64,000 nucleotides of DNA, taken from assembly GCF_030384885.1 (NCBI RefSeq), contig NZ_CP128613.1; one strand, given 5' to 3'. Each line of letters starts with the position of its first letter. Within the stretch, counting starts at the first letter, position 1. Below, one piece after another: positions 47,493 through 52,185 of the stretch. The notes under the pieces were generated by a model that saw only the letters and a list, made by a program, of their open reading frames with translations, ran no database searches and was not told the origin of the DNA. The translations under genes were made by a program, and so were the position numbers. This stretch comes from Escherichia coli (GTDB lineage Bacteria > Pseudomonadota > Gammaproteobacteria > Enterobacterales > Enterobacteriaceae).

Positions 47493-48308
47493 ATGATCAT
47501 TACACGAGCAGACCTGCGAGAATGGCGTATCGGAGCGGTGATGTATCGCTGGTTCCTGCGCCATTTCCCACGCGGCGGTAGTTATGCCGATATTCATCAT
47601 GCACTTATTGAGGAAGGATATACGGACTGGGCGGAGAGTCTGGTTGAGTATGCGTGGAAAAAATGGCTGGCGGATGAAAACTTCGCGCATCAGGAAGTTT
47701 CTTCTATGCAAAAACTGGCCATAGATCCCGGAGGAGAGAGACCATTTTGCAGTCAGTTTGCCCGCAGCGACGATCATGCTCGCATCGGCTGTTGTGAGGA
47801 TAATGCCAGAATCGCAACTGCTGGGTATGCCGCGCAAATTGCCAGTATGGGTTATAGCGTGCGGATTGGAAGTGTCGGCTTTAACAGTCACATTGGCAGC
47901 TCCGGTGAACGCGCACGGGTTGCTGTAACCGGTAATTCTTCGCGGATAAGCAGCGCTGGAGATAGTAGTCGGATTGCGAATACCGGAATGCGAGTACGCG
48001 TTTGCACATTGGGTGAACGGTGTCATGTCGCCAGTAATGGTGACCTGGTGCAAATCGCCAGCTTTGGCGCAAACGCCAGAATTGCCAACAGCGGCGACAA
48101 TGTACACATCATTGCCAGCGGTGAAGATTCAACAATAGTGAGCACGGGCGTGGTCGACTCAATTATTCTCGGGCCAGGGGGAAGCGCCGCACTGGCATAT
48201 CATGACGGCGAAAGAGTTCGCTTCGCCGTCGCCATTGAAGGTGAAAACAATATTCGAGCCGGAGTCCGCTATCGCCTTAATGAACAGCATCAGTTTGTTG
48301 AGTGCTGA
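47493..48308 (+). CDS. ydhT: Uncharacterised protein with 15 tandem nonapeptide repeats
   Basis: 271-aa ORF; residues about 90-225 form 15 consecutive 9-residue units of pattern x-[R/H/Q]-[I/V]-x-x-x-G-x-x. Confidence 0.88.
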   Translation: MIITRADLREWRIGAVMYRWFLRHFPRGGSYADIHHALIEEGYTDWAESLVEYAWKKWLADENFAHQEVSSMQKLAIDPGGERPFCSQFARSDDHARIGCCEDNARIATAGYAAQIASMGYSVRIGSVGFNSHIGSSGERARVAVTGNSSRISSAGDSSRIANTGMRVRVCTLGERCHVASNGDLVQIASFGANARIANSGDNVHIIASGEDSTIVSTGVVDSIILGPGGSAALAYHDGERVRFAVAIEGENNIRAGVRYRLNEQHQFVEC

Positions 48309-48313
48309 TAGCT

Positions 48314-49924
48314 TTACATTTGATCAAACGAAAGACGCCGACGAGCACGGGATGCAGGCTTTACGACCGCCTGAGCCATCGCCTCACCAATTTCTGCACA
48401 TGCCGTAAGTCCCTGTACGAATGGCCGGTCGTGCATCAACCAGGGCAACGCGCCGAACGCTACGCGCCCACGAATTTCTTCGGGTTGCTGTAGCGTATAA
48501 TCTTCGCCAACATCCGGGATTTCATCGCCTGTTTTCTGTAATTGTTCGCGTAGCCCTGGGAAAGGAATGTCTTTCACTTTGAGCGGACGCTGCCCGCGGG
48601 CATCAATAAAAACGTCAAACGAGTAGCTATTGTTTTCCGTTTTCAGGACGGTGCGCGACTCATTAATTTCCATTTCGTAGTCTTCACCGAGGGCGAGAAT
48701 ATGAATGATTCCCGCTTCACGTAAGGCCAGTAGTCGACGAATAGACTCTGAAGGGATTGCCGCATAATTATCGATGAAAACCCGGGCAAGGCCTTTACTG
48801 AACCGTTTATGGTCGTGTTCATTCAGATGAGGAACAATTTCCTGTACGGCTTCATGCAGGCGCAGAATGACATAACGCCAGGGAACAGTATGTTTTTCTC
48901 GTTTATTGCGTTCGACTTCCTGGAGATTTTTTTCTGCCCAGTCGAATGGGTCGCGTTGTTTGCGCTCGGCAAACCAGGCTTGAGCAAAGGAATCGACATT
49001 CAGGCTCTCTAAGGCTATGCGTTGGCTCCAGTCTAGATCAGCAAATTTGATTTCCTCTACTATTAATTCGAATACTCGATCCAAAAGGCCCTCTTCGCCT
49101 TTTTGAATCTCCGCATTTAATGCCTGTTCAGTGACGATGTGTAAGGGCTCGTAGGGAATAGGGCAATAGAAATCGGCTTCCGGTAAAATACCCGTGCGTG
49201 ACATTAGCGTAATACTTAGCTTTTCACTTGTGTTATTGAGTTGATAAATAACATGTTGTTTATCATCTTCAATAAATGAACCATGTTGAATAGCCACTGC
49301 CATTGCCGCATCCAGTCCGCTCAAGGATGTTCCCATAATACCCACGTTACACGCATCAACCTTTGCTTCCATCAGGCCTGACCACGGGCTGGGAAAATAC
49401 GTTCTGGTTGCTTCTTCTTCATCAGGCCAGACGTGACCCGTCGCGATCACCGCTAAATCAAACGTCTCGATGGGTAAATCCTGATTTGTAGCGAGCATGA
49501 CGCCAGCATTTATAATTTTCAGATCGGTAACCTGGCATGATTCATAAACAGCCACTGCAAATTTTTGCTGTCGTGCCTGGTCTACTAATCGTAAAAATTG
49601 ATCGCGGAAATATTCGCCCAGCAGAATTCGCGGTAAAAACTGGCGATCGTGCAAGGTTTCTTTTTTAACGCCATAACGCTGGAGATGGCTGGCTTCTTGC
49701 TTTTGTAGCCATTCGAGATATGTACAAGAAATCGGCGGTATTTCAATACTGGCAATATTTGCCAGCATCAGTTTTGAGTTTTCCTCATCACTGTATGGCA
49801 TCCCGACACCGGCTTCGTCAGCCTGCTCGAAGATAGAAATAGAAAGTGGAGTTTGTTGCTGTAGAAGCGAGAATAAGGTGTAGATCCCCGTAGGCCCGGC
49901 ACCCACAATAGCAATTTTTTTCAT
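48314..49924 (-). CDS. ydhS: FAD/NAD(P)-binding oxidoreductase-like protein
   Basis: 536-aa ORF with N-terminal Rossmann motif (IAIVGAGPTGIYT). Confidence 0.9.
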   Translation of the reverse strand: MKKIAIVGAGPTGIYTLFSLLQQQTPLSISIFEQADEAGVGMPYSDEENSKLMLANIASIEIPPISCTYLEWLQKQEASHLQRYGVKKETLHDRQFLPRILLGEYFRDQFLRLVDQARQQKFAVAVYESCQVTDLKIINAGVMLATNQDLPIETFDLAVIATGHVWPDEEEATRTYFPSPWSGLMEAKVDACNVGIMGTSLSGLDAAMAVAIQHGSFIEDDKQHVIYQLNNTSEKLSITLMSRTGILPEADFYCPIPYEPLHIVTEQALNAEIQKGEEGLLDRVFELIVEEIKFADLDWSQRIALESLNVDSFAQAWFAERKQRDPFDWAEKNLQEVERNKREKHTVPWRYVILRLHEAVQEIVPHLNEHDHKRFSKGLARVFIDNYAAIPSESIRRLLALREAGIIHILALGEDYEMEINESRTVLKTENNSYSFDVFIDARGQRPLKVKDIPFPGLREQLQKTGDEIPDVGEDYTLQQPEEIRGRVAFGALPWLMHDRPFVQGLTACAEIGEAMAQAVVKPASRARRRLSFDQM

Positions 49925-50049
49925 TGTTACTTACCTGTACGCATTCTTTCGAATTTAGTGTTATCAGATAAGTTTGGTTGAAATTTTTAGAATTTGAGAA
50001 ATTTCAGACAGGGATGAAAAGGGCGCTAACCGCCCTTGGTTAAAATCAG

Positions 50050-50355
50050 TCAGGCGAGTTTTGCCTGATTGATTTGACTCAGTGGCTCATTGACATCGAA
50101 AACTTTGGCGACAACTTCCTCAACGCCGAGATTTTTCAGTCGGGCAGTATGTTTTTCCAGATAGGCAAGGGCGCTTTTTTCATCAGTGAAAAGGTAGATC
50201 CCACCGGCTTCGTGGTTCTTTTCACTTTCTGTCCATACCTTCCACAGAAAACCAGGTTCCTGATTAATCGACTCAGCAAGCGGTTTAAGCTGCTCAGCCA
50301 TTGCGTCGCCAAATGGGCCATTAAAAGCAAAATGAAGTTGTAACAAAGTTGCCAT
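50050..50355 (-). CDS. ydhR: Small Dabb/antibiotic-biosynthesis-monooxygenase-like protein
   Basis: 101-aa ORF; terminator hairpin downstream (aagggcg-gttag-cgccctt). Confidence 0.85.
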
Positions 50356-50462
50356 AGCGATTCTCCTTCTGATAACGCATACGAAGACAGTGTAAATCTT
50401 TTAACGTATTGGATACAGAGAAGAAACAGAGGGAAAAAGGAGAAGACCAGATTAAGAAAATC

Positions 50463-50539
50463 TGGTGCGTCCGAGTGGACTCGAACCACCGACCCCCACC
50501 ATGTCAAGGTGGTGCTCTAACCAACTGAGCTACGGACGC
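50463..50539 (-). tRNA. valW: tRNA-Val (anticodon GAC)
   Basis: minus strand GCGTCCGTAGCTCAGTTGGTTAGAGCACCACCTTGACATGGTGGGGGTCGGTGGTTCGAGTCCACTCGGACGCACCA: 77 nt, cloverleaf-compatible, encoded CCA; copy assignment valV vs valW inferred from gene order. Confidence 0.95.
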
Positions 50540-50543
50540 AGGA

Positions 50544-50620
50544 TGGTGCGTTCAATTGGACTCGAACCAACGACCCCCACCATGTCAAGGTGGTGCTCTA
50601 ACCAACTGAGCTATGAACGC
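50544..50620 (-). tRNA. valV: tRNA-Val (anticodon GAC)
   Basis: minus strand GCGTTCATAGCTCAGTTGGTTAGAGCACCACCTTGACATGGTGGGGGTCGTTGGTTCGAGTCCAATTGAACGCACCA: 77 nt, differs from its neighbour in acceptor and T stems; 4-nt spacer. Confidence 0.95.
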
Positions 50621-50928
50621 AACGTTGTAGGTGACAACGGGGACGAATATTAGCGGCAGAGTGGGAAGGTGGCAAGAGGCAAAACGTAATTTTCTGCGGT
50701 ATTTCGACCGTTTGCAGAGCTTTTAAGCAAATTGGCTATATTTTGTTGATTTGCAAGGGCGATTTTTATTCAGGATCGCATTTACATCTGACACAACCCA
50801 ATAATCTGTGTATCAGAGTTTAAACAGAGTTGTTTGCCACCATCTCAAAATCTGTCGTGGATAAATCCTCCGTAGCCTTTACACTTATGTAGCAATAAAG
50901 GCACACAGATGCAGCAAAGGAATAAATC

Positions 50929-52185
50929 ATGGGATCTGATGCGAAAAACTTGATGAGCGACGGGAACGTGCAAATTGTTAAGACCGGCGAGGTCATTGGC
51001 GCGACGCAACTTACTGAAGGTGAGTTAATTGTTGAAGCTGGCGCAAGAGCCGAAAATACCGTGGTCACGGGGGCCGGTTGGTTGAAAGTGGCAACCGGTG
51101 GGATCGCCAAATGCACACAGTACGGCAACAATGGCACGCTATCGGTCAGTGACGGTGCCATTGCCACAGATATTGTTCAGTCAGAGGGAGGCGCAATTAG
51201 TCTCTCTACGCTCGCTACGGTTAATGGCCGCCATCCAGAAGGTAAATTTAGCGTTGATCAGGGTTATGCCTGCGGTTTGTTGCTGGAAAATGGCGGTAAC
51301 CTGCGTGTACTGGAAGGCCATCGCGCGGAAAAAATCATTCTCGATCAAGAGGGCGGCCTGTTGGTCAATGGGACAACCTCAGTGGTCGTGGTAGATGAAG
51401 GTGGTGAATTGTTGGTGTATCCAGGTGGGGAAGCCAGCAATTGTGAGATTAATCAGGGCGGCGTTTTTATGCTGGCGGGGAAAGCCAGTGATACATTGCT
51501 TGCTGGTGGCACCATGAATAATCTCGGTGGTGAAGACTCTAACACTATTGTTGAGAATGGAGCCATTTATCGTCTGGGGACGGATGGCCTTCAGCTCTAT
51601 AGTTCCGGTAAGACGCAAAACCTGTCCGTTAATGTGGGTGGTCGGGCTGAAGTGCATGCTGGTACGCTGGAAAACGCGGTAATACAAGGTGGGACAGTGA
51701 TCTTGTTGTCACCCACCAGCGCGGACGAAAATTTTGTCGTAGAGGAAGATCGCGCACCGGTTGAACTGACCGGGAGTGTTGCATTACTGGACGGCGCTTC
51801 AATGATTATTGGCTATGGCGCAGATCTGCAACAATCATCGATTACTGTACAGCAGGGCGGTGTGTTGATTTTCGATGGCAGTACGGTAAAAGGTGACAGT
51901 GTCACTTTCAATATTGGTAACATCAATCTGAATGGTGGAAAACTGTGGCTGATCACTGATGCGGCAACGCATGTGCAACTGAAAGTGAAACACCTGCGCG
52001 GAGAGGGAGCGATTTGCCTGCAAACCAGTGCGAAAGAGATTTCACCTGACTTCATCAATGTTAAAGGGGATGTTAACGGTGATATACACGTTGAGATAAC
52101 CGATGCCAGTCGGCAAACTTTGTGTAACGCACTGAAATTACAGCCAGACGAAGACGGGATTGGCGCAACGCTCCAGCCTGCGTAA
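50929..52185 (+). CDS. ydhQ: Autotransporter-passenger-like beta-helix repeat protein lacking a translocator barrel
   Basis: 418-aa Gly/Asn/Val-rich ORF with imperfect repeats typical of AIDA-type passenger beta-helices; no C-terminal beta-barrel-length region. Confidence 0.87.
   Translation: MGSDAKNLMSDGNVQIVKTGEVIGATQLTEGELIVEAGARAENTVVTGAGWLKVATGGIAKCTQYGNNGTLSVSDGAIATDIVQSEGGAISLSTLATVNGRHPEGKFSVDQGYACGLLLENGGNLRVLEGHRAEKIILDQEGGLLVNGTTSVVVVDEGGELLVYPGGEASNCEINQGGVFMLAGKASDTLLAGGTMNNLGGEDSNTIVENGAIYRLGTDGLQLYSSGKTQNLSVNVGGRAEVHAGTLENAVIQGGTVILLSPTSADENFVVEEDRAPVELTGSVALLDGASMIIGYGADLQQSSITVQQGGVLIFDGSTVKGDSVTFNIGNINLNGGKLWLITDAATHVQLKVKHLRGEGAICLQTSAKEISPDFINVKGDVNGDIHVEITDASRQTLCNALKLQPDEDGIGATLQPA

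Follow-up and report, generated by a model that had tools for sequence, protein, structure and literature searches.

FzmM of Streptomyces sp. V2 (PDB entries 8CP2 and 8CP5; relatives CreE and PcxL) is an L-aspartate N-hydroxylase, or nitrosuccinate synthase, which holds its substrate in a helical domain (residues 264-447). Trp51 of this enzyme stacks on the flavin, Asn62 sits over the flavin C4a, and L-aspartate is bound by a cluster consisting of Arg13, Arg266, Arg276, Arg409, Arg412, Arg416, Arg577 and Asn413. Enzymes of the FzmM type lie within Streptomyces biosynthetic clusters. In class B flavoprotein monooxygenases in general, an Asn, Asp or Glu is located over the flavin C4a. Here we compare with these enzymes the products of ydhS and ydhR, the two genes found at positions 48314-50355 of a 64-kb stretch of Escherichia coli DNA (the window, meaning the whole stretch that was analysed). 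The best explanation, which we consider fairly probable as a whole, is that these are two unrelated, separately transcribed and already annotated core genes, with YdhS being a flavin monooxygenase of FzmM architecture, YdhR acting on its own, and neither belonging to the adjacent YdhYVWXUT oxidoreductase system.

YdhS and the flavin monooxygenases

Relatives of YdhS were collected as 992 clusters at E<=1e-3 in a 50%-identity library, and an alignment of 85 sequences was built from them. The AlphaFold2 model based on this alignment reached a predicted local distance difference test (pLDDT) score of 94.7 and a predicted template modelling (pTM) score of 0.92. When the model was compared with the PDB by Foldseek, 8CP5 and 8CP2 were the top matches (E 6e-22, TM 0.72), and the next ones, the ornithine hydroxylases SidA, KtzI and PvdA, followed ten orders of magnitude behind. 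Only 8CP2 aligned over all three YdhS domains, with 477 residues compared to about 300-360 for the other structure matches. Structure prediction, which an earlier sequence-only reading of this DNA had proposed as a check, thus gave a confident flavoenzyme fold with FzmM as its best match. In the model, YdhS has the three domains of FzmM, among them a large helical substrate domain, whereas this last domain is absent from the class B flavin-containing monooxygenases (FMOs; 6WPU, 7D4K, 2GV8) and from SidA, PvdA and KtzI. The combination of a flavin adenine dinucleotide (FAD) domain, a domain for reduced nicotinamide adenine dinucleotide (phosphate), NAD(P)H, and a large helical substrate domain has so far been solved for FzmM alone. 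The relevant features are as follows.

48314..49924, minus strand: ydhS coding sequence, an ATG-initiated open reading frame (ORF) of 536 amino acids; FAD/NAD(P)H-binding protein, PF13454, with a predicted three-domain FzmM-like fold
48713..49135, minus strand: all-helical domain between the dinucleotide-binding domains, residues about 264-404 (AlphaFold2 helices 266-403), the presumed substrate domain
49304..49345, minus strand: second dinucleotide motif, for NAD(P)H, of the FMO type GxSxSAxD, residues 194-207, VGIMGTSLSGLDAA, from profile and conservation
49757..49759, minus strand: codon of Asn56 in the LANIAS motif, 100% in 85 sequences, candidate counterpart of FzmM Asn62
49877..49915, minus strand: FAD-binding beta-alpha-beta motif GxGxxG, residues 4-16, IAIVGAGPTGIYT, which aligns with the FMO FAD motif

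The dinucleotide-binding motif that the sequence-only reading had placed near the start of YdhS was confirmed as IAIVGAGPTGIYT. Its statement that YdhS lacks obvious similarity to a specific enzyme class did not hold, in view of the match to Pfam PF13454 (NAD_binding_9), the profile matches to FMOs at 1e-10 and the fold match to 8CP2. Residues 5-164 matched PF13454 with 107.3 bits against a cut-off of 21.8 (E 1e-30), and YdhS stayed under the threshold of every Pfam family of class B flavoprotein monooxygenases. A single-sequence search of the PDB with phmmer gave marginal Rossmann-motif matches only. The 85-sequence profile matched class B FMOs with an E-value of 1e-10; 8CP2, labelled 'FAD-binding protein', followed with 9e-8 (residues 4-283) and ranked sixth in this search, in which the best matches were all FMOs, and it was not retrieved by an N-terminal sub-profile. 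In the profile alignment the NAD(P)H motif of YdhS is matched with IIGSSASAVD and LGSSYSAEDV, which come from the FMO structures 6WPU and 7D4K, and the ATGH motif of the family corresponds to the equivalent FMO motif. YdhS therefore carries both glycine-rich dinucleotide motifs, for FAD and for NAD(P)H, in a single polypeptide, as is required of a class B enzyme. For one distant subfamily member (P0266) no PDB match was obtained, and by sequence its subfamily is therefore not FzmM-like.

In the 85 sequences, G8, G10, N56, R99, G103, G163 and G198 are invariant, as are L201, G215, P248, P391, A400, G444 and P501, and conservation of at least 87% was observed for E61, D134, H164, D205 (99%), S242, R321 (88%), W349, D371, R374 (87%) and Q445; S200 is conserved at 95%. 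From the fold, the motifs and the invariant Asn56 we infer that YdhS is best read as a single-component monooxygenase of the class B type. Such a YdhS would be a cytoplasmic flavoenzyme made of a single polypeptide, in which NAD(P)H would reduce the bound FAD, and the reduced flavin would react with O2 to give a C4a-hydroperoxyflavin that may be stabilised under Asn56. One oxygen atom would then be transferred to a nucleophilic nitrogen or sulfur of a small metabolite held in the helical domain. The conserved Arg99, Arg321 and Arg374 give a hint that this metabolite is anionic. It is probably not L-aspartate, because, in the profile alignment, YdhS has a hydrophobic residue where FzmM carries Arg13, the two proteins are only 17-18% identical, and ydhS has no biosynthetic neighbours.

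Several points weigh against assigning YdhS to the monooxygenases on the model of FzmM. At the identity just given, FzmM is not detected by phmmer. Asn56 as the counterpart of FzmM Asn62 is a proposal made from the sequence by position and not by residue-level alignment: it is located 12 residues past a GMPY motif, and Asn62 is located 11 residues past Trp51. The FMO motif FxGxxxHxxxY/F was not evident by eye in residues 165-193, the stretch from the ATGH motif to the NAD(P)H motif, on which no formal motif search was made. N-hydroxylases likewise depart from this motif. In the literature searched there is no report of an activity, a flavin content or a substrate of YdhS, and the gene neighbourhoods, whether of orthologues or of distant homologues, offered no substrate clue.

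The same scaffold of two dinucleotide-binding domains is also used by NAD(P)H-dependent reductases and dehydrogenases of the low-molecular-weight disulfide, quinone or ferredoxin type and by NAD(P)H oxidases, and YdhS could possibly be one of these, although we consider this unlikely. Disulfide reductases of the TrxR or Bdr type have conserved redox-active cysteines, whereas no cysteine is conserved in the 85 family members (the highest is C509, at 58%), which speaks against a protein-thiol disulfide reductase. Furthermore, the sole structure covering all three domains is that of a monooxygenase, the top matches of the sequence profile are all FMOs, and Asn56 is invariant in the region in which class B enzymes have their catalytic Asn, Asp or Glu.

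It appears very improbable that YdhS is orthologous to one of the characterised enzymes of the PF13454 type, be it the L-aspartate N-hydroxylase that forms nitrosuccinate or an FAD-dependent urate hydroxylase like HpyO, which we take to be placed in PF13454. FzmM is indeed the best structural match of YdhS. The literature describes HpyO as a urate hydroxylase that works with FAD and NAD(P)H and comes from 'a distinct family of hydroxylases', of which there are many paralogues. However, besides the low identity to FzmM and the lack of a phmmer match, Arg13 of the aspartate-binding cluster falls on Ile14 of YdhS (consensus Leu or Ile) in a hidden Markov model register that sets query residue 4 on chain residue 3. 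A gene of the nitrosuccinate-lyase type or for uricolysis adjoined ydhS in none of the 80 loci described below, and no neighbour for an enzyme using nitrosuccinate was found in the window. The FzmM types are found in Streptomyces clusters; ydhS, in contrast, belongs to the Enterobacterales core and is solitary, without a biosynthetic cluster or lyase partner.

Gene order and transcription around ydhS and ydhR

The names ydhS and ydhR and the placement given by the sequence-only reading, with ydhS convergent with ydhT and tRNA-Val genes adjoining ydhR upstream, were all borne out, with the coordinates listed here.

47493..48308, plus strand: ydhT, the final gene of the FNR-activated ydhYVWXUT, convergent with ydhS; matches the NCBIfam PRK09946 YdhT equivalog
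48309..48313, no strand: 5-bp gap between the stop codons of ydhT (48306-48308) and ydhS (48314-48316), without room for a terminator
49925..50049, minus strand: ydhR-ydhS spacer of 125 bp, with the terminator-like hairpin of ydhR, the presumed ydhS promoter and the ydhS ribosome-binding site (RBS) AGGTAAG
50012..50037, minus strand: terminator-like hairpin 3' of ydhR, AAGGGCG-GUUAG-CGCCCUU followed by UUCAU, retained in an Escherichia lineage from which ydhR is deleted
50050..50355, minus strand: ydhR coding sequence, an ATG-initiated ORF of 101 amino acids; ferredoxin-like (Dabb) protein with solved structure and putative function
50463..50620, minus strand: valV and valW, two tRNA-Val(GAC) genes (50463-50539 and 50544-50620, both minus strand, by ARAGORN) upstream of ydhR, a separate transcription unit

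YdhS matched the NCBIfam equivalog PRK09897 'FAD-NAD(P)-binding protein YdhS' over residues 1-534 with 1096.6 bits (cut-off 783), and YdhR matched PRK11118 with 169.9 bits (cut-off 103). A query of 2.7 kb covering 48000-50700 was present in 5425 of 5426 complete E. coli genomes, with a coverage of at least 80% in 5398 of them. Because the equivalog scores are far over their cut-offs and the genes are nearly universal in the species, ydhS and ydhR are real, named E. coli core genes and not chance ORFs. The query was 100% identical to strain 2013C-4282. The allele in the window is a rare one: identity of at least 99% was found in 10 of the 5425 genomes, the remainder being at 95-99%. YdhS of the window is 96% identical to the usual form of 534 amino acids and has two additional C-terminal residues, ending in ...SFDQM.

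Conservation of gene order was analysed in 80 loci from different species, with YdhS orthologues 63-93% identical that were retrieved with a 21-sequence alignment and onto which the neighbour proteins of the window were mapped. Adjacency of ydhS to ydhR and ydhTUXWV was confined to Escherichia and two Citrobacter, the latter with insertions. The order ribC-mdtK-valV-valW-ydhS, without ydhR and with a convergent carbonic anhydrase gene downstream, is that of Enterobacter, Lelliottia, Huaxiibacter and relatives. Elsewhere the neighbours of ydhS are unrelated: a maltose-acetyltransferase-like protein, a large catalase, Ail/Lom, glutathione S-transferase, LamB porin, a TonB receptor, GGDEF and LysR. 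Distant YdhS homologues (29-46% identity) showed no recurring partner, in contexts that were mostly short metagenomic contigs. In Escherichia sp. MOD1-EC7003 the ydhR ORF is cleanly deleted (locus L001, 2056-2303) while ydhS and valVW are intact, and what remains of ydhR at the scar is its RBS with the first bases, its last four codons and the hairpin that follows. The ydhR homologues of Neisseria, Raoultella, Photobacterium and Tolumonas stand alone, none of them having a PF13454 neighbour.

YdhS and YdhR could be imagined as a functional pair, for example a flavoenzyme and a cofactor-free oxygenase or isomerase acting on a shared aromatic or quinone substrate. This appears most unlikely, since the adjacency is absent from the 70-odd remaining ydhS species, mdtK-valVW-ydhS exists without ydhR, MOD1-EC7003 has kept ydhS after the clean deletion of ydhR, ydhR stands alone in four other genera, and the spacer between the two genes holds a separate site for sigma-S binding as well as a terminator-like hairpin. 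The ydhYVWXUT operon, which comprises the six genes from ydhY through ydhT, has been shown to be directly activated by FNR under anaerobiosis. The sequence-only reading had called a pairing of ydhS and ydhR with this oxidoreductase cluster suggestive, and this suggestion is not supported: ydhS lies on the opposite strand with 5 bp between the stops and in a linkage limited to one lineage, and so does not belong to the operon. Taken as a whole, the evidence makes the pairing a matter of chance in how Escherichia orders its genes, because the synteny is lineage-limited and the operon is FNR-activated and anaerobic, while the closest relatives and the enzyme class of YdhS require O2. That YdhS and YdhR serve as accessory redox partners of YdhYVWXUT is accordingly a highly improbable alternative, for which their physical adjacency in E. 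coli and the annotation of all of them as redox proteins might speak, but which is contradicted by the restriction of this adjacency to Escherichia and two Citrobacter, by the convergent arrangement described below, which would favour mutually exclusive expression, by direct FNR activation of a six-gene operon that ends at ydhT, by the O2 requirement of the nearest YdhS relatives and by binding of the sigma-S holoenzyme at the ydhS promoter region.

As to transcription, the valVW paper reported that ydhR is not co-transcribed with valVW, genomic SELEX (systematic evolution of ligands by exponential enrichment) in K-12 has placed a peak of the sigma-S holoenzyme within the spacer from ydhR to ydhS, and an RNA sequencing survey has named ydhS-ydhT among overlapping convergent ('excludon') pairs, an arrangement that favours mutually exclusive expression. 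A SELEX site of RcdA has been located at ydhT. In a consensus scan no sigma-70 promoter was found in the spacers upstream of ydhS or ydhR. The scan was at background, with 4 promoter-like sites in 3 kb compared to 3.2 expected, and the sole relevant sigma-70-like site was the valVW promoter (50675-50647). The stem-loop of the ydhR hairpin (50019-50037, minus strand) has a folding free energy (dG) of -12 kcal/mol and is followed by a short U tract, with a z-score of just -1.77. Since 5 bp is all that separates the ydhS and ydhT stops, no terminator fits between the two genes, and no terminator-like fold was detected downstream of the ydhS and ydhT stops (z-scores -1.08 and +2.09, without a T run). 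Independent transcription of ydhS and ydhR is thus supported by the literature and not by the sequence. Of the promoters and terminators that the sequence-only reading had attributed to the two genes, the hairpin after ydhR and the separate units could be retained, whereas a sigma-70 promoter was not found and a ydhS terminator is absent.

Further observations were made at the valW-ydhR border. A hairpin with an 8-bp stem at 50446-50466 (minus strand) begins in the ACCA end of valW and leads into a U-rich tract, UCUUCUCCUUUUU. With a dG of -9.4 kcal/mol and a z-score of -5.05, this hairpin was equalled by 0 of 200 shuffles. According to the valVW paper, a Rho-independent terminator is not recognisable after valVW. 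Rfam RF02194 'HPnc0260 bacterial antisense RNA' gave a full-length match at 50339-50501 (plus strand), with 112 bits compared to a gathering threshold of 59 (E 2e-16). The matched stretch runs antisense to the 3' half of valW, to the spacer between valW and ydhR and to the opening codons of ydhR. The model positions that fit well (118-156) are the reverse complement of the T-arm and acceptor end of a tRNA, and the remainder is A/U-rich. A genuine antisense RNA to ydhR was therefore rejected, the match being probably an artefact of the tRNA-antisense part of the model.

Orthologues of YdhS at 63-66% identity were also found in Brucella (formerly Ochrobactrum), a Hyphomicrobiales metagenome-assembled genome and Paracoccus, and they are as near to the E. 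coli protein as that of Enterobacter. Wherever upstream sequence exists in this group (loci L047, L053-L055, L058, L061, L066, L070 and L076), a large catalase gene (about 704-710 amino acids) on the same strand is located directly upstream of ydhS, about 107-132 bp away. The pattern points to horizontal transfer of ydhS and perhaps to a context of oxidative stress. An enterobacterial-type ydhS locus was also present in the assembly of Chryseobacterium sp. 18061, with the same neighbour clusters as in Citrobacter sp. 18056, which belongs to the same project (L034 compared to L056), and the Chryseobacterium assembly is probably mislabelled or mixed.

On the other side of the tRNA genes, ydhQ (50929-52185, plus strand) encodes 418 amino acids with passenger-type repeats of AIDA and pertactin (PF16168, PF03212). 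With 86 bits against the full autotransporter adhesin Ag43 (cut-off 1200), it looks like a fragment of the passenger type in which no translocator domain is evident.

YdhR as a ferredoxin-like protein

YdhR of the window is 100% identical to PDB entry 2ASY over 101 residues, and also identical to 1WD6 and 2HIQ. It defines its own Pfam family, PF08803 (142.7 bits, cut-off 27.1), and gave no match to the Pfam ABM family, in contrast to the cofactor-independent oxygenases of the ABM type, SnoaB and, according to the literature, ActVA-Orf6 and YgiN. Unrelated ferredoxin-like proteins, such as designed proteins, BLUF, PII-like proteins and ribosomal S6, reach the same Z score with YdhR as the ABM-type oxygenases do. 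The sequence-only reading had seen in YdhR a cofactor-free monooxygenase of the Dabb fold. The small ferredoxin-like (Dabb) fold was confirmed, but the label of monooxygenase rests on a generic fold and is a fold-based guess. Among 19 homologues, from Escherichia to Neisseria, Photobacterium and Tolumonas, 46 of 101 positions were invariant. As part of the explanation given at the outset, we think it reasonably probable that YdhR is a strongly conserved ferredoxin-like protein working alone.

The literature searched contained only expression data on YdhR, with no substrate or activity shown: the protein was increased 3.4-fold in uranyl stress, together with WrbA, and the ydhR transcript decreased with plumbagin. 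In Photobacterium sagamiense (L084, 2928-4306) and Tolumonas osonensis (L085, 2991-4303), ydhR is divergent from an adjoining gene for a LysR-family regulator, and in Tolumonas osonensis a KatG-type peroxidase gene follows just past this regulator. The LysR neighbour may be a dedicated regulator of ydhR and indicate a link of YdhR to stress. A homologue with 77% identity has been deposited as a predicted protein of Naegleria gruberi (P0339), which could be due to bacterial contamination or to horizontal transfer into the eukaryote.

Published phenotypes of ydhS and significance

Deletion of ydhS has been reported to lower the susceptibility of E. coli to killing by the Agrobacterium type VI secretion system (T6SS), and the effect was complemented in trans. 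Neither YdhS nor YdhR matched any of the PADLOC defence models, and the phenotype is therefore not accounted for by a known defence system. Additionally, YdhS is a substrate of Prc cleavage in vitro, although a cytoplasmic location is predicted for it, and azidothymidine (AZT) represses ydhS 16-fold. A more specific proposal, that YdhS is a core enzyme of the sigma-S stationary phase that N- or S-oxygenates a common anionic metabolite to an N-hydroxy, nitro or S-oxide compound, is put forward as speculation that is rather unlikely to be right in full. If it is true, such chemistry would be an addition to the currently known metabolism of E. coli, and its product or redox side-effects could explain the lower T6SS susceptibility of the ydhS deletion.

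Both ydhS and ydhR are ordinary, already known genes, and YdhS presents a routine 'orphan enzyme' problem. The tempting link by association to the YdhYVWXUT oxidoreductase is removed here as unsupported, the practical value of which is modest, and the database name 'monooxygenase' for YdhR calls for caution, as it stands on a generic fold alone. What is gained for an E. coli y-gene is a concrete biochemical hypothesis, namely that YdhS is a class B-type flavin monooxygenase of FzmM architecture.

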